Assembly: GCF_014697105.1 (NCBI RefSeq)
Contig: NZ_JACJRF010000001.1
Coordinates: forward strand, 286,008 to 318,007
Length of the DNA stretch: 32,000 nucleotides
Reading direction: 5' to 3'
Source of the DNA: Anabaena subtropica FACHB-260
Lineage (GTDB): Bacteria; Cyanobacteriota; Cyanobacteriia; Cyanobacteriales; Nostocaceae
Shown here: positions 5,311 through 31,953 of the stretch, piece after piece
Layout of the letters: the number at the start of each line of letters is the position of its first letter
How positions within the stretch are numbered: the stretch's first letter is position 1
Made by a program: the position numbers and the translations under genes
The notes under the pieces: model-generated
Told to the model about the DNA's origin: nothing
The model's input: only the letters and a program-made list of their open reading frames with translations
The model's database searches: none

Positions 5311-5383
5311 GGGCGCGTAGCTCAGTGGATAGAGCCACGGATTTCTAATCCGTTGGTCGCAGGTTCGAACCCTGCCGCGCTCG
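5311..5383 (+). tRNA. tRNA-Arg (anticodon TCT)
   Basis: Hand-folded cloverleaf: acceptor GGGCGCG/CGCGCTC (one G-U pair), D stem GCTC/GAGC, anticodon stem ACGGA/TCCGT with loop TTTCTAA, variable loop TGGTC, T stem GCAGG/CCTGC with loop TTCGAAC, discriminator G. CCA is not encoded. Confidence 0.9.
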
Positions 5384-8892: not shown

Positions 8893-10097
8893 TTGTTATA
8901 CAAGGAACGGTGTAGGGTTTTACGCTTGGCTAATTCTTTGCCTTGACGACCAAGTTGTTCGCGCAATTGCTGATTTTGGGACAATTGTTTGAACGCTTGC
9001 AAAACTTCGTAACCAGACTTGGGATTTACCAGCAGTCCATTTTCTTCGTGGCGTACTATATCAATTAAAGAAGCGTGACGAGAAGCAATTACGGGTTTAC
9101 CAAAGTAACTGGCTTCTAAAAAGACAATCCCAGACCCTTCTATCTGGCTGGCTTTAGTGTTTGATAAAGTCAGCATGGCAAATATGTCACAAGTTGCGTA
9201 ATAACCTGCTAGTTCCTGATTGGCTACGTATCCAGCAAAATGTACCCGCTTATCTACGCGCAAGCGCTCTGCTAAGGATTTTAATTGAGATTCACAAGGC
9301 CCTTGACCACAGATGATGTAGTGAACATCTACACCAATAGTTAAAAGTAGTGGTAAATTGTCAATGACGCGATCAAAGCCTTTTTGTTTAATTAAACGCC
9401 CTACGGAAAGGATGACTACTGCGGTTTGGGGAATATTGTAAACTTGACGAAGCCTATTACGTAATTCATTTAGTTTATTGTCGTTGCTCCCCAAACCAAA
9501 CTTTTCTGGTCTGATTACTGGATGAATGACGTGGGTAGGGGTTTGTAAGCGGAAGGTATTTTGTAGGTAATCTTGTGTTAAGGAACTGTTACACACAATC
9601 CCTTCAGCGCGTGTGAGTGTTAATTTAAAGAGCGATCGCCATAAAGGATTGCCTACAGCAGAAGCCAGATCATTGCCGTGTAAGTAAATGAAGAAGCGTA
9701 CAGGTAAGATATAGCTTAACAATAAGAGTGAGGGAAACTCGTAGCCGTGTCCCCATTCAATATAACGGTAATGATAGCGAAAATAGAGTTTAATGGCTAG
9801 AAAAAATGTCGCCACCAAATTAAACAAAGGTTGTAAATAACTTCCTAAAAAATTACCAAGCCAGTATTTCAGGTTTGGCCAGCGATAGATAGGAAACTGT
9901 TGCCCTTGGTCAAATAGTTTATCACCTCCACAACTAGCCGCCAGAACAATTACTTCCTCTGGATCTTGAAGACAGCGATTGTAGAGATATTCCCCAATTA
10001 CAGCTTCTTTAGGCAAGAAAAAACGTGATATTACTAAAATATCTGGGGATGCAGTCGTGTCTCTGATTTTTGTTGCCAGTTGCGAGATATGTTCCAT
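8889..10097 (-). CDS. Glycosyltransferase family 4 (GT-B)
   Basis: 402 aa. The C-terminal half has the typical GT4 pattern (SVGRLIKQKGFD, GQGP, ...E.SGIVFLEASYFGKPVIAS). Confidence 0.8.
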   Translation of the reverse strand: MEHISQLATKIRDTTASPDILVISRFFLPKEAVIGEYLYNRCLQDPEEVIVLAASCGGDKLFDQGQQFPIYRWPNLKYWLGNFLGSYLQPLFNLVATFFLAIKLYFRYHYRYIEWGHGYEFPSLLLLSYILPVRFFIYLHGNDLASAVGNPLWRSLFKLTLTRAEGIVCNSSLTQDYLQNTFRLQTPTHVIHPVIRPEKFGLGSNDNKLNELRNRLRQVYNIPQTAVVILSVGRLIKQKGFDRVIDNLPLLLTIGVDVHYIICGQGPCESQLKSLAERLRVDKRVHFAGYVANQELAGYYATCDIFAMLTLSNTKASQIEGSGIVFLEASYFGKPVIASRHASLIDIVRHEENGLLVNPKSGYEVLQAFKQLSQNQQLREQLGRQGKELAKRKTLHRSLYNN

Positions 10098-11174
10098 TTT
10101 AAGTGTAGTAAAGTTAGTTCAAATAAGTTGTAATAGTTCAAACTGCAACTAAAGCAAAGTAACTAGTGTCGGCTTGCTTGTTGTGATCAAAACTAAGAGC
10201 TACTGCATCTGTACTTATATTGGACAGTACTTACAAGTGAGTATCAATATGGTGTTATTATTCATACACTTTCTTTTGGAAATCATCAATCCTACTGGTG
10301 AATTTACTTAAAGGAATACTGCTCTTGTATCTAATTTTCTCCTGTTTTTTCTGTTTAGCCAATATTTAGGCTCAAAAATCTAAGTATTTACAGATTTTTT
10401 TAATAAAGTTTTACAAATTGTAATTAATTCAATCTGAAAAACTTATGGAGTTGTGTTATTCCATACTTCTTATTTTTAATAAAGGGAATGCAAGTATTCG
10501 ACCACAACTCTATTTTAAAATAGGAAATATAGATATTTATTTATTAATTTCGTGAAGTATATGTTAACTAGATATTTTATTTATTTTCTATTTTTATCTT
10601 TGCTCACAATCGTAGCAATGAACATCATTTTAAGAAAATGAAAATTAATAATTATATTTATAAAGGGAAAACTGAAGCAAAAAATACTAAAGTTATGACT
10701 TATGCCCATAATATCTTGAATACATAACAAGATCACGCCAGAATGCCCCATAGTGTAAATATTAGGGAATCTTGTGGTTTACGAAAATATACAGCGTTTC
10801 TTGGAGAGAGGCTAGAGGCGAGGGACTAGAAACTAGGATAATCTACCTCATCTAGATAAAACGTGCTGTATTTTGGCATTACATATAGTTTTGGAAATAT
10901 ACGTAGTTTGGGGATAATTATTAATTCATCCCAAAGTTCCCTCAAAGGGGATAACTTTTGAGGTACGGTTATCTACTACAGAAATCCCCCCTCGGTTTGC
11001 TGCCTAGCCAAGGCAAGACGCGCTAGATTGAATATGTAGCCAAAAAAGACACCGAGCTACTACCAATCATCAAACTCGCTGATTTAATTACTGGCTGGCA
11101 TCACATAAGCACTGTAATGCTTCTACCAAAGATAAGAATTAAATAAGTAATAACGTTTTCAAGCGAATGTGACT

Positions 11175-14988: not shown

Positions 14989-15183
14989 AATGAAGGGATA
15001 ATAGCATCTTGTCCAAACTTAACCCCAATATTATCGAATTGAAAAGCGATATCTAGACAAATAAATATTAATAATTATCACCTGTATGAATACTGAAAAG
15101 GCGGATACAGATGAAATTATTTAGTTAATCTGTTACTTGTTACTGGGTAGTTTTTGAAGATACATTTGCAGGTGGATAGGTTA

Positions 15184-15283
15184 ACTTAAATTTTATTTAA
15201 GTTTGTAGCGAGTGATTCATAACTCATAGTAGAGGCAACTAGGAATGAAGTCCTAACTACAAACTTTAACTCACTTAAATTTT
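15184..15283. repeat. MITE-like hairpin element flanked by 11-nt direct repeats
   Basis: Inverted arms TTAAGTTTGTAG (15197-15208) and CTACAAACTTTAA (15257-15269). The direct repeat ACTTAAATTTT occurs at 15184-15194 and 15273-15283. The interior AGTCCTAACTACAAAC resembles AGTCCTTACTACGAAAC at about 13005. Confidence 0.35.
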
Positions 15284-15375
15284 GCCTACTTACTATGTAT
15301 GAGTTAACAGATATTCCTTACAAAAATGATAATAGAATTAAATTATTGAGTTTGTCAAGTATGTTTATATTTTGT

Positions 15376-16176
15376 TTATTTTCGCTCTCCTAATGAGCGA
15401 ATTGATTCTGCTATAACGGCGACAATTGCAGATATTAAAATTAACAACATACTGAGGGCATTAATATCAGGTTTAACACCACTTCTAATGCGACTAAAAA
15501 TTTCCATTGGGAGGGTGTTGTAACCGCTACCTGAGGTAAAACTAGCAATAAGGAAGTCATCCAAGCTGAGGACGAATGCTAGTAGACAGCCAGCGATAAT
15601 TCCTGGCATTAACTGAGGTAGTAATACTTGAATAAATGCTTGTATAGGTGTAGCACCTAAATCTAGTGCAGCTTCTTCCAAGTGGGGGTCTAAATTAGTC
15701 AGTCTTGATGAGACTACTAAACCGATATAAGCTAAACAAAATACTATATGAGCAGCCACAATTGTCCATAGGCTAAGGGGGATAGCGAAAGTAGCAAGGA
15801 AGACAAGAGTCGCAACTGCGATCGCAATATCGGGAATAATTAATGGTAGATAAGCAACACCACGATACAATTTCTTCCCAGGGAACTGATAACGCGCCAA
15901 ACCTACTGCCATTAAGGTTCCTAACACGGCGGAAATACTCACAGCACAAAAGGCTACTAGCAAACTATTTCTCAAAGCTGAGAGGATGCGATCGTCGCTT
16001 AATAATTTGTAATACCAATCAAGGGTGAAGCCTTGCCAAGTCGCACTGTAAGGTGATTGATTAAAGCTATAAAATCCCAGTACCAGAATAGGTAGGTACA
16101 TGAATATAAATAGGATTATGGAGAAAACCGCCTGCCAAGAGACAAGCGGTTTATTATGCGATGGAGAAATATTCAC
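15376..16176 (-). CDS. ABC transporter permease (PotC/spermidine-putrescine-type, MetI-fold)
   Basis: 266 aa with 6 TM helices and the EAA-type loop (LEEAALDLGATPIQAF) typical of binding-protein-dependent permeases. Confidence 0.8.
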   Translation of the reverse strand: MNISPSHNKPLVSWQAVFSIILFIFMYLPILVLGFYSFNQSPYSATWQGFTLDWYYKLLSDDRILSALRNSLLVAFCAVSISAVLGTLMAVGLARYQFPGKKLYRGVAYLPLIIPDIAIAVATLVFLATFAIPLSLWTIVAAHIVFCLAYIGLVVSSRLTNLDPHLEEAALDLGATPIQAFIQVLLPQLMPGIIAGCLLAFVLSLDDFLIASFTSGSGYNTLPMEIFSRIRSGVKPDINALSMLLILISAIVAVIAESIRSLGERK

Positions 16177-17140
16177 GTTTTTGTGATTTTATAATGTTGC
16201 CAAGTTTAAAATATATGCGACTAGATATTAAACGTCAATATCATAGCCAAAATTTAACCTAGTAGGCTACAAGAACTATCTAATACAAAAATATATAACT
16301 GCTATAGCTTACTTTCATAACGAAGAGAATAAATGATTAAAAATCTCCACCCATAAGGGAATGGAAATTTTGTCAGTGGTCAGTAGCATTCGCGTGGCGT
16401 ATTCCCTTGGGACAAAGAGGTTTTATAATCGCTCACTAAGAGCTAATTTGTAAACTAAAGTAAAATACTTACCATGTAAGGGTTTCAGGAATTCGGGTTA
16501 ATACAGCACTTATTCGCTGAAACTTAGACCTAGTAATGATTTGAATCTCCTTAAGATTTTCTTTACGAATCAGCTCTAAGAAAGCATTAGGACAGAACAA
16601 AAACAACTGGCAAATCACAAGCGCAAGGCAGCAAATCAGAGCAAATGTATAAATAGCCGTGTAACCGACAAAAGAAAATATAAAATTGCTTACTTCTGGA
16701 GCTTTTAGTGATAAAAATTGCAAAAATATTCCTCTAATTATATATATATCAGATTTGATTATTGAGGAAATCTTAGTATCTCTAGGAATGCTCACCAAAA
16801 TCACTACAAGGTGGGCAATGCGATCCTACACATATTTTCCAAATTAAGTATGAATAATATAGATTTATTAACTCTGATAATGCAATAAATGATCTTTGAT
16901 TGCCAATTTAGATGTAAACATTACGTAAAGTATAAGATAAAATTTATCTCTTGGGAATAGAGTGATTTCTCTACTAGGATAGACAAGTAATCAAGAATAT
17001 AAAGCATAAGATGATGAGGTAGTTAGTTTAAAAATTGGTGTTAAAACTAGTTTCTAGTGCAAACTTATTTATTTGTTAAGCACTCTGGAAACAAAAAACA
17101 AACACACCTAATTCAAAGCTTAGTTTGTAGGAGGTTTGTG

Positions 17141-23956: not shown

Positions 23957-24093
23957 ACAAACAATAAAAAAGCCCGCATGAGCGGACTAAAGTAGAAGGG
24001 TCAAATGATCGAAATTGACTATGAGATTTTTAAATCCCTTCTTTATTTTTAGCAATTCGTTCTTCAAATGCAAGCATTAAACAACAAATTTTT

Positions 24094-24118
24094 AGACATA
24101 ATTACGGTAATTATGTCT
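24094..24118. repeat. Perfect 12+1+12 palindrome AGACATAATTAC-G-GTAATTATGTCT
   Basis: Read directly from the sequence. It lies in an AT-rich ORF-free region. Confidence 0.6.
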
Positions 24119-24370
24119 TTTGATATATATATTTTCTCCTAATTGAATAGGAAAAACAATATTTTTTAATTTTGTCAATATCCACAAGAAGTATTTATAT
24201 TAGGAGATGATTAATTGTTATGTTTCAATAGAAGTCACAAATTCAGTAGCAATTTAAAAGAATTATTTTTTATTTTTTAATTGTTATTCTCTACTCCCAG
24301 TCTACGCAAGTCATACCGAATTTATGCAACGCCTAAATATCAGGAACTTCAAGATAAAAAATATCCAACC

Positions 24371-24436
24371 TGTAGGGTGCGTCAGTGCGATAGAACCTAA
24401 CTATACTCAGAAATTATTCATACTGACGCACTCTAC
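24371..24436 (+). repeat. 66-nt hairpin dispersed repeat, copy 1
   Basis: TGTAGGGTGCGTCAGT...ACTGACGCACTCTAC. It differs at about 6 of 66 positions from the copy at 30365-30430 and has the same orientation. Confidence 0.8.
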
Positions 24437-24667
24437 CTAACCATCAATTGCGGATAATTTATTTTTTGGTGTTCCCTTAAACAATTGCAGATATAACAGC
24501 CATAGCTAATCTCTGATTCGCTATAGAAATAGGATGATTCCAGAGAGAGCGATCGCATTGCTGTTGCGGAATTCGGATTAAGCGATCGCAATAACTTTAC
24601 TGGTCGTCTACGATGAGGGGGATGAGGGAGATAGCAATTCTTCCTCAGATCCTCTCAATCCCCAGTT

Positions 24668-27127: not shown

Positions 27128-27402
27128 CTGATATATTTGATACTGATTTGTCCAGTATTGGCATCTTTCCCTGGGTACTTATGCAGTTACCTTGAGGAAT
27201 AATTTTCTGATCTAGATTTAAAACTTAGTGCGATCGCACTGAAATTACATAATTTATGCCATTTACAACTTTCTTTCAAATGTAAGTATGTAGCTTAGGG
27301 GTTAGGGGATGAAAATCAAAACACCTAAATCATATATTAAATTAACTGCGTTCTCCTACACCCTGATACCCCTATACCCTTAGCCATAACCACACTCAAA
27401 CT

Positions 27403-27639
27403 TTAAATCGCTGCTTCTTCACGCTGACAGTCAAACACAACCATAAAGGAAGCATTCGGTATTACTTGACGTAGATGCTGTACATAACCATCAGCATCAG
27501 AACGACTACGAAAGCGAGCCACAATCTCACGTTGTGTATCGGGAAGTAAACGCGCAATAGCCCAAGAATTTAGACGTTGTTTATAGGCGATTGGCTGAGT
27601 TTCGGACTTTGTTGCTGTGTATTCGGTGTTTTGTGGCAT
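27403..27639 (-). CDS. Small hypothetical protein (78 aa)
   Basis: Uninterrupted ORF of host-like composition. I recognise no motif. Confidence 0.5.
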   Translation of the reverse strand: MPQNTEYTATKSETQPIAYKQRLNSWAIARLLPDTQREIVARFRSRSDADGYVQHLRQVIPNASFMVVFDCQREEAAI

Positions 27640-28147
27640 GATTATCTTAACCGTATTAAGTTTCAGTAAGGGTGTTAGTAAATATCTGAGCAGAAATTTA
27701 CTAGCCCCTTTTTTTTATGATCTGCCACCTTGTTATTCCATTATTAAAAAATTGTCAACACTGAGTGATACATTTTAGACTGAACTTAAGTTATAAATTA
27801 CAAATAGCACTGAATTTACAATCTCCAATAAACTATGCCTTGTCGTCAGTGAAAAGAAAAGTAAAACTTAAAATTCAGTTTATTTAACTGAGGGTTACTA
27901 AAATCTTTTGTATAAAATTTATCGAACAAACCTAGTACTGGTATTAGAAAAATATGTGTTGTATTAAATCTTACGATAAGGTCAAAATTTTTGTAAATTT
28001 TCAGCGCTTGTGTAATTATTGAGTGTTTAATATTACTAAAATCTAGCTAAAATTTCTCAAGTAATTTCTTAGGATTTACATAAATCTTGACCAATGTTTA
28101 GAGGTTAGTTAAAATTTCTGCATTAAATTATACTTTTAAATCATCAA

Positions 28148-29149
28148 ATGTCATTAGTAACATCAATAATTCAGAAGATAGCGCCCCAAATAGGTGCAGT
28201 TGTCGTCATAGATCCAGAATATGAATTAGTAGGACATATTACATTTAAAAATGGCAAAAAATCCCTTTTTAGTACTAACAAATTAAATATTAATGGTTTT
28301 GGTTCGGCAGAGATAGCAAAAGATAAAGGTTATTCTAAATTTTTTCTGAAACATTTTGGCTATAAAGTCACTGAAGGGCAAACATTTTTTAATCATAAAG
28401 TGTGTGCAAGAATAGGTAATGGGAAAAATATTGATGCTGGATTTGAGTATGCTAAAAATTTGGGCTTTCCTGTAATTATTAAACCCATCAATCTCAGCCA
28501 AGGAAAACTAGTTACAAAAATTCATAATAAAACAGAATATTATCAGGTAGCTAAAAAGATATTCCGAATTAATGCCGGACTAATTATTGAAAGATTCTAC
28601 GTTGGTAGAGACTACAGAATTGTTGTTATAGATGATGAAATAATAGCAGCATATCAAAGGCTACCCCTATCTGTAATAGGAGATGGGAAATCGAGCGTTG
28701 CTGAGTTAGTCCAAAATAAACAAGAAAGCTTCATTAGAAGTGTGAGAAAAAAACTTATAGATGTTGACGACTTTCGGATAAAACGCAAATTACAGAAACA
28801 AAATCTGAATTTTAACAGTATTATTCCCAACGGGAAAATAATTTATCTTTTAGATAATGCTAATTTATCGAGTGGTGGTGAGGCAGTAGATGTTACAGAT
28901 AGTATCCATCCTGACTTTCAAAAATTAGCTTTAAATGTCACAAAAGATATGGGTCTGAGATTAATGGGGTTAGATATTATTACTCAAGATATCACCAGGC
29001 CAATGGTAGATTATGTCATCATCGAAGTTAATGGTTCTCCTGGCTTGACTCACTATGCCTCAATTGGAGATGTTCAAACTAAGAGAGTAGAATATTTATA
29101 TCTTAAAGTTTTAAAAGCATTAGAAATAGGGTATAACAACGAAAATTAA
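28148..29149 (+). CDS. Stand-alone ATP-grasp ligase resembling the G domain of cyanophycin synthetase
   Basis: 333 aa with IAKDKGYSKFFL, FPVIIKPINLSQG, DYRIVVIDDEIIAAYQR, VIGDGKSSV, NANLSSGGEAVDVTDSIHPD, GLDII, and IIEVNGSPGL. There is no Mur-ligase-like domain. The gene is very AT-rich. Confidence 0.75.
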   Translation: MSLVTSIIQKIAPQIGAVVVIDPEYELVGHITFKNGKKSLFSTNKLNINGFGSAEIAKDKGYSKFFLKHFGYKVTEGQTFFNHKVCARIGNGKNIDAGFEYAKNLGFPVIIKPINLSQGKLVTKIHNKTEYYQVAKKIFRINAGLIIERFYVGRDYRIVVIDDEIIAAYQRLPLSVIGDGKSSVAELVQNKQESFIRSVRKKLIDVDDFRIKRKLQKQNLNFNSIIPNGKIIYLLDNANLSSGGEAVDVTDSIHPDFQKLALNVTKDMGLRLMGLDIITQDITRPMVDYVIIEVNGSPGLTHYASIGDVQTKRVEYLYLKVLKALEIGYNNEN

Positions 29150-29309
29150 AGAGACTTATATTTAGAAGATAAAATGATGTACTTCATCCAGATAAAAAGC
29201 TCTGTAGTAGTAGGGAATAGAAAATACATTGGACAGAATATAAAGTAAATCTCACTAAAAACTATGATGAGAAAAATAAAATTTTAATTATCAATGTATT
29301 AATTCAAAT

Positions 29310-30332
29310 ATGAAATTTTTAAGCCACACTCCTATCATTCACATATCCAAGCCAAGTGCTGATTTCTACTCTGTTTTTTCTCAAGCAGAAATTCTAGAAA
29401 TAGTTCAGACCTTAGAAGTTCAACGAGAAATACCTCTTAAGTATTCTTATAAAGGTAGAGGGGCAAAAATTTGGGATAATTTTTATCTAAAATATATTAT
29501 TCCCACATGGTATCGGAAATCAAATATAGAGATTGACTTGTTAGAAGCAAATTTTGAATATATTAATGGTAACTATCAGAAATGTGAAAAAATTAATATT
29601 ATAGATGTAGGTGCAGGTAACTCCTATCCGGTAAAATCATATATTGATAGACTGAATAAAATAAATAAAATTAACAAATATATTGCTTTAGATATTAGTG
29701 AAGATTTGCTTAAGGTATCTAGCAAAAATATAAAAAAATGGTTTCCCTTAATTGATTGTGCCAATTACAGAATTGATATAGAAAATACTTGTGTGCCAAA
29801 AAATATTTTAGAAAATCAACATAAAAAAATAGCTAATATATTCTTACATTTAGGTGTAACGATCGCCAATCATCAAAATAGAACTCAGGTATTCAAAAAC
29901 TTTCGAGACAGCATGAATGAAAATGATTTACTTGTCTTCACTAATGAGATTGGTTCTAGTTCTCAATGGGATGGGATAGCTAGGGGTGGTTGTAAGCATC
30001 ATGCAGACCAAGTATATAGATGGATTACAAATAATATTGGGATTAGAAGAGAAGACTGTGAACTTGTAAGAAAATATGATCTAGCAACAGATAGTATAGT
30101 TGCTAATATGAAATTTCGGCAGAATTACACAATAAATTTCAGTTATTTAGGAATAGATAAAAATATCGAAATATCGGCAGGTGAAGAAATTACTATTTGG
30201 AGACATCATAAGTTTGAAATAACCGCACTCATACAAGAAATTGAAGAAGCTGGATTAAAACTTGTCCACTATAGTACTAACAAGTATTCATCTCATCTCA
30301 TGATGATTTGTGAGATTGAAAATAATTCGTAA
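29310..30332 (+). CDS. Class-I SAM-dependent methyltransferase, distant EgtD/Methyltransf_33-like
   Basis: 340 aa with SAM motif I IIDVGAGNS and motif II YIALDIS. It is collinear with the EgtD layout (PLKYSY..G..IW, LGVTIAN, AGEEI....HKF, EEAGLKL C-terminus). The EgtD YYPTRTE block is not conserved. Confidence 0.6.
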   Translation: MKFLSHTPIIHISKPSADFYSVFSQAEILEIVQTLEVQREIPLKYSYKGRGAKIWDNFYLKYIIPTWYRKSNIEIDLLEANFEYINGNYQKCEKINIIDVGAGNSYPVKSYIDRLNKINKINKYIALDISEDLLKVSSKNIKKWFPLIDCANYRIDIENTCVPKNILENQHKKIANIFLHLGVTIANHQNRTQVFKNFRDSMNENDLLVFTNEIGSSSQWDGIARGGCKHHADQVYRWITNNIGIRREDCELVRKYDLATDSIVANMKFRQNYTINFSYLGIDKNIEISAGEEITIWRHHKFEITALIQEIEEAGLKLVHYSTNKYSSHLMMICEIENNS

Positions 30333-30364
30333 TTAGGGATTTCCAGATAAAAAAGTATCTAAAA

Positions 30365-30430
30365 TGTAGGGTGCGTCAGTGCAATAAAACCTAACTGTAC
30401 CAAGAAATTATTCATACTGACGCACCCTAC
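30365..30430 (+). repeat. 66-nt hairpin dispersed repeat, copy 2
   Basis: Perfect 15-bp terminal inverted repeat GTAGGGTGCGTCAGT / ACTGACGCACCCTAC around a ~34-nt loop. Confidence 0.8.
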
Positions 30431-30449
30431 TAACTTTCAAACAGCAAAT

Positions 30450-31121
30450 ATGAATCCTAGATTTATACAAATATCTGAATTAGAATTGCTCACACCAGTA
30501 AGTTTTAACCATGCTTTGATAGTGCTGGCAAATCTTGATAGTGATTTGGCGCGGGTTTTAGAGACCCTGGGAACTCCTCCCTTATGGAAAAGGGAAGCGG
30601 GGTTTCCTACACTAGTGCAGATAATTCTGGAACAACAAGTTTCCTTGGCTGCTGCAAAGGCTGTTTTTAATCGTTTATTGGAAATTGTTAAACCCCTAAC
30701 ACCAGAAAATTTTTTGCAATTCGATGATGAGCAATTCAGATTAATTGGTTTTAGTCGGCAAAAAAGTTTATATTGTCGAGGATTGGCAAATGCTATTGTC
30801 AGTAATCAACTTGATTTAACCAAATTGCCAACAATGGATGAAAATGCCATTAGAACTCAGTTAAAGCGAATTAAAGGCATTGGTGACTGGACGGTTGATA
30901 TTTATCTACTCATGGCGCTACAACACCGTGATGCCTTTCCTAAAGGCGATTTAGGGCTGTTAATTGCAGCACAGCAGGTTAAAGGTTTGGCAACACGTCC
31001 TACACCTGTACAATTAGAAGCGATCGCTCAAAATTGGCGACCGTGGAGAGCAGTAGCAGCCAGAATACTCTGGCACTACTATTTAAATAATCATGGTAAA
31101 GCCGTTACAGTTTACCAGTGA
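30450..31121 (+). CDS. DNA-3-methyladenine glycosylase II-like (HhH-GPD family)
   Basis: 223 aa with the helix-hairpin-helix [20 protein letters not shown], followed by FPKGDLGL carrying the catalytic Asp. Confidence 0.8.
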
Positions 31122-31953
31122 ACACCCGATCAGCCGGGCCAGTCATGTAAATTCGTTGGTCTGTTTCTGACCATTCAATTTCTAAGCAGCCACCAGGTAA
31201 TTCTACAGTAGCCAGGCGATCGCTTCTGCCAGTCAACACAGCAGCCACCAACGCAGCACAAGCACCAGTACCGCAAGCTAGAGTAATCCCCGCGCCTCTT
31301 TCCCAGACACGCATTTTTAAATAATCACGACTCACAACTTGAATAAATTCGGTGTTCGTCCGTTGGGGAAACGCTGGGTGATGTTCAAATTTAGGGCCGA
31401 TGCTTGCTAAAGGAATCGCTGCTACATCTTCCACAAAAGTAATACAGTGGGGATTCCCCATGCTCACACAGGTAACATCCCAAGTTTGCCCCTCTACATC
31501 TAGAGGTTGGTTCACTACTTTAGCATCAACAGCAGCCAGATTTGTAGGAATTTCCCCAGCCAGTAACCGAGGTAAACCCATATCCACCTTGATTTGTCCA
31601 TCGGGGGTGAGTTGGGGCGTAATCACACCAGCCAAGGTATGAATGCGATAGGTATCTTTGCTGCGAGACATCCCTTCCAAGTCAGCCAGGAACGCAGCTA
31701 GACAGCGAATACCGTTACCACACATTTCCGGTTCTGAACCATCAGAATTAAAAATCCGCATCGTGTAATCAGTACCGTTTTCTCCAGGTAAAGCAAAAAT
31801 TACACCATCAGCCCCGATACCAAAGTGGCGATCGCACCACTGCACAGCTTGCTCTGGAGTGATTGCAGGCGTTTTAGCAGAGCGATTATCAATGAGAATA
31901 AAATCGTTGCCTAGACCGTGATACTTAGTAAATTCGATTGCCATTTTTCCCAT
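31105..31953 (-). CDS. dapF: Diaminopimelate epimerase
   Basis: 282 aa with [32 protein letters not shown], and a second catalytic-Cys block [16 protein letters not shown]. The start is either ATG 31953 or 31941. Confidence 0.9.

Follow-up and report, generated by a model that had tools for sequence, protein, structure and literature searches.

Adjacent ATP-grasp ligase and EgtD-fold methyltransferase genes in Anabaena subtropica are very probably chance neighbours

In the genome of Anabaena subtropica FACHB-260, the gene of a stand-alone ATP-grasp ligase is followed by the gene of an EgtD-fold methyltransferase, both in DNA that is more AT-rich than its neighbourhood. Do these two genes form a functional unit, and were they acquired together? 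The original prediction, made for the window (the whole stretch of 32,000 nucleotides that was analysed), saw in them a candidate small-molecule pathway and took their composition to suggest horizontal acquisition. We suggest that this "cassette" is, very probably, a lineage-specific chance juxtaposition of two independently inherited genes, i.e., neither a conserved pathway nor a recent island. The lead is corrected accordingly: ligase and methyltransferase should not be followed up together as an orphan pathway. The features of the locus are the following.

27403-27639, minus strand: p78, a 78-aa gene, orthologue of Anabaena PCC 7120 asl1778
27640-28147: divergent intergenic region between p78 and the ligase gene, 508 nt, GC 0.266
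28148-29149, plus strand: ligase gene, 333 aa, stand-alone ATP-grasp carboxylate-amine ligase, orthologue of PCC 7120 alr1779
29150-29309: spacer between the ligase and methyltransferase genes, 160 nt, found only in the A. subtropica genome, a synteny breakpoint
29310-30332, plus strand: methyltransferase gene, 340 aa, EgtD-fold, SAM-dependent, Pfam Methyltransf_33
30366-30430: hairpin element, 65 nt, with 15-nt perfect arms and a 35-nt loop

The open reading frames agree with the layout first described, in which the two genes are co-directional and 160 nt apart with an AT-rich gap of 508 nt to the left of the ligase gene. Co-occurrence in other genomes was the test set for the pairing, and it came out against it. 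When 56 ligase-centred loci were searched by tblastn within ±10 kb, a methyltransferase match was found in none of them, while p78 was found in 52. In the other direction, the ligase is present in 0 of 13 methyltransferase-centred loci. The p78, AlkA-like and dapF genes are also absent from these 13 loci, whose surroundings are of four or more distinct types. This second sample is small, with about 9 independent loci that have useful flanks; four loci come from a metagenome scan and further ones from exact-protein look-ups. One chromosome carries both genes in Aliinostoc HNIBRCY26, about 1.45 Mb apart, and in A. minutissima they are on separate contigs. Since none of the other genomes examined has the two families side by side, we regard them as chance neighbours here and not as a two-enzyme pathway.

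The nucleotide alignments locate the junction. Homology to the ligase locus of the relatives runs up to the stop codon of the ligase gene (29149) and no further, and homology to the methyltransferase loci begins only inside the coding sequence, at 29321, and covers the methyltransferase CDS alone. Both methyltransferase junctions are, like the spacer, unique to the A. subtropica genome. In Nostocaceae the ligase gene is inherited vertically and keeps its place opposite the divergently oriented small-protein gene asl1778/p78 of the heterocyst lineage. The methyltransferase, in relatives a lone gene at varying locations, often changes its genomic address, and in A. subtropica it would have landed directly 3' of the ligase gene, in a rearrangement junction. 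Relocation would then be the cause of the adjacency.

What are the two enzymes? The first protein had been described as an ATP-grasp enzyme similar to the G domain of cyanophycin synthetase (CphA1) but without its Mur-ligase-like domain, and both profile and PDB searches bear this out. The best profile match is cyanophycin synthetase (TIGR02068, 183 bits, model positions 207-449), and the best PDB match is 7wac (E 1e-34). Residues 47-303 of the ligase align to 207-460 of CphA1, i.e., to the G domain (PDB 7wac, 7lg5). Two Pfam ATP-grasp thresholds are also passed, RimK-like PF08443 with 56.4 bits (cutoff 21) and Dala_Dala_lig_C PF07478 with 33.5 bits (cutoff 24). Using the roles assigned to the CphA1 G-domain residues (PMC9427784), K261, R309, D431, E450 and N452 of CphA1 correspond to the catalytic K112, R157, D276, E293 and N295 of the ligase. 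All five are invariant among 34 orthologues, so the ATP/Mg-binding and acyl-phosphate residues are kept, as is the large-loop motif ANLS(S/T)GG. From these invariant residues the ligase is predicted to be an active enzyme, which by homology would convert a carboxylate to an acyl-phosphate and then couple it to an amine.

However, the ligase is not a cyanophycin synthetase by score or by build. CphA1 consists of three domains (N-G-M) and about 870-900 aa, while the 333-aa ligase lacks both the N domain and the MurE-like M domain, and its 183 bits are far below the TIGR02068 cutoff of 850 bits. The position of CphA1 E215, which binds the Arg of the primer, is variable in the ligase (E55; E in 22 of the 34 orthologues, otherwise Y, H or other residues). 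Further, the P-loop residue H267 is replaced by Q, L or K, and R458, which binds the alpha-carboxylate of Asp, by T, S, D or others. With a score so far under the cutoff, with both domains missing and with the equivalents of E215, H267 and R458 variable or replaced, the public name "cyanophycin synthetase" is unjustified. Judged by its residues, the ligase is without the primer- and aspartate-specific features of CphA1 and falls outside the namesake family.

Other ATP-grasp families are more distant. The C-terminal ATP-grasp module of GshAB/GshF (NF002688; PDB 3ln7) matches ligase residues 20-303 at model positions 451-734 with 135.6 bits, and the identity is about 28% over residues 1-322. The Mg ligands are common to both proteins, but GshAB has a GshA domain that is missing in the ligase, whose score is far below the cutoff of 425 bits. 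An Asp-like nucleophile was considered from the invariant R171, N239 and S241 (CphA1 R323, N394 and S396). This was rejected because the same trio is present in the glycine-adding GshAB and thus is uninformative on Asp specificity. N-acetylglutaminylglutamine synthetase (TIGR03103), RimK and D-Ala-D-Ala ligase have the ATP-grasp fold in common with the ligase, but the scores are 115 against a cutoff of 569, 62.3 against 143.4 (rimK_fam) and at most 43 against Ddl cutoffs of at least 243, respectively. An ordinary RimK or Ddl was rejected on these NCBIfam scores and on the PDB matches, which for both reach only E ~2e-4. The family of the ligase is a large one, made up of stand-alone proteins of about 330 aa that form over 100 clusters at the 50% identity level. 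This G-domain-like family is uncharacterised and widely mis-named "cyanophycin synthetase", and a search of the literature on alr1779 found no function.

The constant neighbour of the ligase gene is p78, which is adjacent and divergent in 52 of the 56 ligase loci, with no other synteny retained. The real unit could therefore be ligase and p78, in which the ligase would extend the disordered C-terminus of p78, in a manner similar to RimK and S6, or p78 would regulate the ligase. We find this reading quite unlikely. It is in its favour that CphA G domains and RimK extend the C-termini of peptides or proteins (PMC9427784). In the AF2 model of p78, residues 25-70 form a beta-beta-alpha-beta core of high confidence (pLDDT 86-95) between disordered tails, and a conserved D70...R73.E75 precedes the C-terminal one. 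However, conservation does not extend to the final three residues of p78, and each gene is also found alone. In Nodularia, Fischerella and Heteroscytonema p78 has no adjacent ligase, while Microseira, an Acidobacteriota MAG and Rhizobium plasmids have the ligase without p78. Heteroscytonema has c2 directly beside p78, which makes the ligase gene appear as an insertion/deletion polymorphism between the two. Expression in PCC 7120 also separates the two genes. After nitrogen step-down asl1778 is induced 3.3-, 18.8- and 11.8-fold at 6, 12 and 21 h (PMC3141674), while alr1779 changes at most 2.3-fold, against about 19-fold for asl1778 (PMC3141674).

Induction of asl1778 is also reduced in a sigC mutant (PMC4390870). 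The p78 family comprises 239 clusters, all from heterocyst-forming cyanobacteria. It contains no Pfam domain, and the "SPOR domain" label of a few of its UniRef members was rejected, being unsupported by Pfam. A Foldseek search against the PDB gave no match to the p78 fold below E 0.86. Specific to the heterocyst lineage, induced by nitrogen step-down and with no fold relative found, asl1778/p78 may be the more interesting gene of the locus.

In the intergenic region upstream of the ligase gene, a palindrome of the NtcA type, GTATTAAATCTTAC, is found at 27961-27974 (a predicted site), and a promoter-like site, TTGACC-17-TAAAAT, at 28087-28115. Among 50 orthologous intergenic regions, 13 contain the exact NtcA consensus with 8.8 expected, i.e., the enrichment is marginal. 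The blocks 27640-27800 and 28076-28147 are conserved at the nucleotide level in relatives. Rfam gave no match in the window or the intergenic regions except one tRNA elsewhere.

The second protein had been read as a Rossmann-fold SAM enzyme collinear with EgtD, and this assignment of the fold holds. Methyltransf_33 (PF10017) matches residues 30-329 with 90.7 bits (cutoff 23) over model positions 4-297 of 304. In a Foldseek search with the AF2 model (pLDDT 74.6), EgtD is the closest solved fold, with a full-length alignment and a best E of 1.4e-20. EgtD structures make up all of the top 15 PDB matches (E 1e-18 to 1e-20, with TM-scores of only 0.46-0.49), and generic methyltransferases follow at 1e-11. 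Thus, the two-domain fold of EgtD (TIGR03438; PDB 4pim) is shared. At the sequence level the match is far weaker: the protein scores 63.2 bits against an equivalog cutoff of 290.9 for TIGR03438, and phmmer against the EgtD entries of the PDB gives only E 2e-4.

The active site divides into a kept and a replaced part, given the residue roles reported for EgtD (PMC8593015) and a mapping that rests on a low-scoring HMMER alignment, with model residues 215-227 at low confidence. The alpha-amino-binding Tyr39, Thr163 and Asn166 of EgtD correspond to Y47, T184 and N187, which are invariant among 30 orthologues together with D99, G101, G103 and D128 of the SAM motif. In contrast, the carboxylate-binding Tyr56, Tyr206 and Ser284 are replaced by W67, W220 and H299, the imidazole-pocket residues Glu282, Thr213 and Met252 by W297, C228 and A265, and Phe47 by W55. 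The replacing pocket residues are invariant or nearly so in the 30 orthologues. Since the histidine- and carboxylate-binding residues of EgtD are replaced, the substrate is probably one other than histidine. This Nostocales clade, with the SAM site and the alpha-amino-binding Asn, Thr and Tyr kept, would then methylate a non-histidine substrate.

By its residues, the methyltransferase therefore has the EgtD fold but lies outside the L-histidine N-alpha-methyltransferase (EgtD) family. The public name of the clade, "L-histidine N(alpha)-methyltransferase", is over-specific on both residues and score. It is the second widespread annotation at this locus, after "cyanophycin synthetase" for the 333-aa protein, that says too much. 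The EasF-type dimethylallyltryptophan N-methyltransferases (TIGR03439) belong to the same Pfam family and are collinear over residues 30-324, but with 52 bits the cutoff of 205.55 is missed, and a prenyltransferase context is lacking. Neither the window nor any of 8 methyltransferase loci with annotation has an egtB-type neighbour (FGE-sulfatase/DinB-type), and the literature on EgtD-like clades and PF10017 gave no function. It is very unlikely, in our judgement, that this Trp-lined clade makes a betaine-type metabolite and, jointly, that a new class of C-terminal ligase acts on Asl1778/p78. If true, the stand-alone CphA-G/GshF-like ligases would be a new class of peptide/protein C-terminal ligase.

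Could the two enzymes still work together, with amide formation and N-methylation leading to an N-methylated amino-acid conjugate? The genes are adjacent in the same orientation and share the same odd composition, and both encode enzymes of a small-molecule type with intact catalytic residues. No terminator-like site is found in the 160 nt between them. Given this spacing and orientation, co-transcription in A. subtropica is possible as read from the sequence, and a strain-specific functional coupling may exist there. As an explanation of the pair, such a pathway is nevertheless highly improbable. Besides the counts of 0/56 and 0/13 loci and the junctions seen in this genome alone, each gene persists alone in many genomes, and the stand-alone ligase homologues of Rhizobium plasmids and Microseira have no methyltransferase partner.

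We return to chance juxtaposition, and to the composition that both genes share. Both had been described as far more AT-rich than their neighbours, and the computed values agree. In a sliding window GC is 0.288-0.326 over 27501-30500 and 0.38-0.49 on either side. The ligase and methyltransferase genes have GC 0.320 and 0.297, compared with 0.429±0.033 for the 19 other long ORFs in the window, and GC3 0.231 and 0.223, compared with 0.353±0.046. Both proteins are also rich in Asn, Lys and Ile, as had been noted (27.9% and 30.6% in sum, against 15.2±2.7%). The longest stretch of the window without HIP1 does cover both genes, from 27237 to 31020 (3790 nt start to start). On its own this gap is not significant, as 33 uniformly placed sites give such a length with P = 0.44, and it was rejected as stand-alone evidence.

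The same composition is found in the relatives. The ligase orthologues have a mean GC of 0.325 with 0.395 in their surroundings, and in 51 of 57 loci they are more than 0.05 below; the methyltransferase orthologues have 0.31-0.34 against 0.39-0.44. HIP1 is absent from 56.2 kb of ligase orthologues (0.69/kb outside) and from 7.4 kb of methyltransferase orthologues (0.90/kb outside). Across Nostocales, AT-richness, proteins rich in Asn, Lys and Ile and the absence of HIP1 sites are thus long-standing traits of both families. As low GC and HIP1 absence are common to all sampled orthologues, they are no mark of a recent acquisition in A. subtropica, contrary to the original prediction. In these genomes, neither AT-richness nor a lack of HIP1 should be taken as a sign of recent horizontal transfer.

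Nor is the proposal of an acquired segment supported for the ligase gene. The alignment to the PCC 7120-type locus has about 79% nucleotide identity and continues through the p78/ligase intergenic region. Between the ligase and its orthologues in the closest relatives the identity is 82-88%, and the synteny with p78 is retained; the closest genome compared has about 88% ligase identity. The ligase, present beside p78 in 52 of 56 relatives, speaks against acquisition, and only the methyltransferase is locus-specific. Vertical descent is indicated for the methyltransferase as well, since an NJ tree groups it with its counterparts in Nostoc NIES-3756 and MS1. No mobility genes or integrase and no convincing flanking repeats were found around the gene pair, the only tRNA of the window is at 5311-5383 (Rfam) and not near it, and the PADLOC defence-system models gave no match. 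A phage or plasmid origin was rejected, as the methyltransferase has no phage or plasmid matches and those of the ligase are distant gshAB/cphA genes and Rhizobium plasmid copies (best 41% identical) with uninformative neighbours. A recent horizontal acquisition of the complete AT-rich segment of 2.8 kb as an island is therefore scarcely credible, even with GC, GC3 and amino-acid composition that depart by 3-6 sd from the remaining genes of the window and 3.8 kb without any HIP1 site.

The hairpin repeat reported to the right of the methyltransferase gene is also present, with arms at 30366-30380 and 30416-30430. The element is absent from the 73 loci compared. A second, near-identical copy lies at 24372-24436, so that the window contains two copies of a dispersed repeat.

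The ligase and methyltransferase genes are co-directional and separated by 160 nt, exactly as originally predicted. The features of the region are:

27403-27639, minus strand, p78, a 78-aa gene orthologous to PCC 7120 asl1778, divergent from the ligase
28148-29149, plus strand, ligase (CphA-G-like ATP-grasp), 333-aa ORF
29310-30332, plus strand, methyltransferase (METHYLTRANSFERASE, EgtD-like), 340-aa ORF
30366-30430, hairpin element of ~65 nt with 15-nt perfect arms, GTAGGGTGCGTCAGT-N35-ACTGACGCACCCTAC
30450-31121, plus strand, AlkA-like gene, right of the methyltransferase
31105-31953, minus strand, dapF, right of the methyltransferase
5311-5383, tRNA gene, the sole tRNA in the window and its sole Rfam match at the gathering threshold

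A 508-nt intergenic gap with a GC content of 0.266 lies between the ligase and p78. The AlkA-like gene and dapF converge and share 17 nt at their 3' ends (31105-31121).

The two genes were proposed to form a functional pair, an idea that was to fall if the families were never found side by side elsewhere; in the other genomes examined they never are. With each species represented by a single genome, 56 loci with ligase orthologues of 58-88% identity were obtained. Nearly all belong to Nostocales, apart from two Microseira genomes and an Acidobacteriota-labelled MAG. Using tblastn, the methyltransferase is found within ±10 kb of the ligase in 0/56 of these loci, and none of 13 methyltransferase-containing loci has a ligase, p78, AlkA-like or dapF gene. 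Some 1.45 Mb of the same chromosome separate the two genes in Aliinostoc HNIBRCY26 (L002, L059), and different contigs carry them in A. minutissima FACHB-250 (L003, L069). At least four contexts exist among the 13 loci: (i) a PAS-histidine kinase followed by the methyltransferase; (ii) MotA/ExbB, MMADHC, methyltransferase, TrkA-type channel and aminotransferase; (iii) an alpha/beta-hydrolase followed by the methyltransferase; and (iv) an ABC exporter followed by the methyltransferase.

At the nucleotide level, the similarity shared with ligase loci of other genomes reaches precisely to the stop codon of the ligase (29149) and no further, and homology to methyltransferase loci is limited to the CDS (29321-30330), i.e., both methyltransferase junctions are unique to the A. 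subtropica genome. We conclude that the two genes were very probably brought together by chance in this lineage, where a rearrangement junction lies between them and their relatives' loci. The predicted hairpin is real and borders the methyltransferase gene at its right-hand junction. A second, near-identical copy is found at 24372-24436, both copies lie in AT-rich intergenic DNA, and none exists in 73 loci from other genomes. The hairpin is a small dispersed repeat of the A. subtropica lineage.

The unusual composition of the segment is evident. GC is 0.288-0.326 over 27501-30500 compared to 0.38-0.49 in the flanks (500-nt windows), and both genes deviate clearly from the 19 other long ORFs of the window in GC (ligase 0.320, methyltransferase 0.297 vs 0.429±0.033), GC3 (0.231 and 0.223 vs 0.353±0.046) and Asn+Lys+Ile content (27.9% and 30.6% vs 15.2±2.7%). 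The longest HIP1-free run among the gaps of the 33-site series, 27237 to 31020, does span both genes; alone, this gap is unremarkable, because P = 0.44 under uniform site placement. Further low-GC patches (0.29-0.35) are found at 501-1000, 10001-11000, 15001-15500, 16001-17000 and 24001-24500.

From this composition, horizontal acquisition had been proposed. However, the orthologues are equally AT-rich and HIP1-free. Ligase orthologues have a mean GC of 0.325 compared to 0.395 in their surroundings, with GC3 mostly 0.15-0.30, and are more than 0.05 below the surroundings in 51/57 loci, while methyltransferase orthologues have 0.31-0.34 compared to 0.39-0.44 around them. There is no HIP1 site in 56.2 kb of ligase orthologues, where ~39 are predicted from the flanking 0.69/kb, nor in 7.4 kb of methyltransferase orthologues (0.90/kb outside). 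AT-richness and HIP1 absence are thus traits of each gene family and no transfer scar. Across all Nostocales genomes sampled (L001-L070), both families have zero HIP1 and very low GC3, although they seem to be inherited vertically; the cause could lie in weak selection on codons, in the amino-acid composition or in a selective advantage of AT-rich DNA.

Other evidence also points to vertical descent. The ligase retains its position beside p78 in relatives, with ~79% nucleotide identity to the PCC 7120-type locus in an alignment running through the intergenic region. In an NJ tree, the methyltransferase clusters with other Nostocaceae copies, NIES-3756 and MS1. The segment has no integrase genes, nearby tRNA or convincing flanking repeats, defence models give no matches and a phage/plasmid comparison no close relatives. 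Given the family-wide composition, the kept synteny, the tree and the missing mobility signs, a recent acquisition is not supported.

Profile, PDB and fold searches show that the predicted family calls are right at the superfamily level. The ligase and methyltransferase are uncharacterised members of known superfamilies, and their public names are over-specific. The ligase, orthologue of PCC 7120 alr1779 (BAB73478), passes Pfam ATP-grasp models. Among the profiles, the cyanophycin synthetase G-domain segment scores best (TIGR02068, 183 bits, positions 207-449 of 862), ahead of the C-terminal module of GshAB (136 bits) and of N-acetylglutaminylglutamine synthetase (115 bits), with every score by far under its curated cutoff; RimK and Ddl models score much lower. 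The PDB sequence ranking agrees (CphA1 7wac, E 1e-34; RimK and Ddl ~2e-4). On the PCC 7120-type contig, CbiJ and DUF1636 genes lie downstream of the ligase, in agreement with the literature, which describes all1780 and all1781 as genes for B12 synthesis.

Residues were mapped onto Trichodesmium CphA1, with roles from PMC9427784, and 34 orthologues were aligned. The ATP/Mg/acyl-phosphate set K112, R157, D276, E293 and N295 is invariant, so the protein should be an active carboxylate-amine ligase. In contrast to CphA1, it lacks the N and M domains, and the positions of E215 (touching the primer's arginine), H267 (P-loop) and R458 (holding the aspartate alpha-carboxylate) are not conserved. The equivalents of R323/N394/S396 are invariant; aspartate specificity was considered from this trio and dropped, as a control alignment finds it also in glycine-adding GshAB and a Rhizobium homologue, and it is therefore uninformative on specificity. 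We infer that the enzyme would phosphorylate a carboxylate with ATP and then join it to an amino-acid amine, the carboxylate probably being the alpha-carboxylate of a small peptide or acyl-amino acid, as in the nearest relatives.

Exhaustive HMMER searches place the ligase in a large family of ~320-360-aa stand-alone proteins with end-to-end alignments and identities of 31-57%. At E ≤ 1e-30 there are 392 cluster representatives, and the 150 best are mostly stand-alone. None of the traced stand-alone relatives has a name or an informative context. The Acidobacteriota-labelled MAG (L050 9923-10990) carries a 59%-identical orthologue with a higher GC (0.418), next to ORFs resembling DNA-methylase or defence genes, either through inter-phylum transfer or a binning error. 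Two tumour-inducing-type plasmids of Rhizobium, one of them pTi6.2 of R. rhododendri (L074 7962-9011), encode a full-length stand-alone homologue with 41% identity, annotated "cyanophycin synthetase", amid hypothetical genes and IS elements.

The methyltransferase passes Pfam Methyltransf_33 (90.7 bits) but scores only 63 bits with the EgtD equivalog model, whose cutoff is 290.9, and 52 bits with EasF. EgtD is the nearest solved fold to its AlphaFold model (pLDDT 74.6) by nine orders of magnitude in E-value. Residues were mapped by HMMER alignment to M. smegmatis EgtD (chain index = residue number + 2), with roles from PMC8593015 and conservation judged over 30 orthologues. The SAM motif D99, G101, G103 and D128 is invariant. 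In this low-scoring alignment, and with model residues 46-71 and 215-227 of low confidence, the alpha-amino-binding Asn166, Thr163 and Tyr39 are kept as invariant N187, T184 and Y47, while the carboxylate ligands Tyr56, Tyr206 and Ser284 are replaced by W67, W220 and H299, and the imidazole pocket Glu282, Thr213, Met252 and Phe47 by W297, C228, A265 and W55, all (near-)invariant. No locus has an egtB-type gene beside the methyltransferase. From the replaced ligands and the missing egtB neighbour, it is an EgtD-fold enzyme and probably an N-methyltransferase, its aromatic-lined pocket accommodating a substrate different from histidine.

A functional link of the ligase to p78 instead is suggested by their divergent pairing, kept in 52/56 loci, but we consider it very unlikely. 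p78 exists without an adjacent ligase in Nodularia, Fischerella and Heteroscytonema, the ligase exists without p78 outside Nostocales, and the two PCC 7120 orthologues are not co-regulated: asl1778 is induced 3.3-, 18.8- and 11.8-fold at 6, 12 and 21 h of nitrogen step-down, whereas the change of alr1779 stays at 1.4- to 2.3-fold (PMC3141674 Additional file 8). Furthermore, all-against-all ORF clustering reveals c2, a ~116-aa ORF family absent from the window and without a Pfam match, convergent and just 3' of the ligase in 29 Nostocaceae loci (within L007-L055, e.g. L036 1580-1930), and besides p78 and c2 no widely shared neighbour. In these loci the ligase sits between c2 and p78, while in Heteroscytonema the ligase is missing and c2 (L073 4234-4584) is directly upstream of p78 on the same strand. 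The ligase therefore resembles an old insertion/deletion polymorphism, suggesting a c2-p78 tandem that either gained the ligase gene by insertion or lost it by deletion.

The p78 family (239 clusters) is confined to heterocyst-forming cyanobacteria and has no Pfam domain; its model combines a confident beta-beta-alpha-beta core with disordered tails, and PDB contains no fold relative. In a sigC mutant, asl1778 is among 58 under-induced genes (PMC4390870). A perfect NtcA-type palindrome (GTATTAAATCTTAC) at 27961-27974, in the divergent intergenic region, agrees with the induction of asl1778; the exact consensus is found in 13/50 orthologous regions compared to 8.8 expected, a marginal enrichment. 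The ~120 nt 3' of p78 (27284-27402) are conserved at the nucleotide level in relatives and could represent either a 3' UTR or a small ORF that is co-transcribed. In PCC 7120 this position holds a small annotated ORF, asl1777, whose co-induction amounts to 23-fold 12 h into nitrogen step-down.
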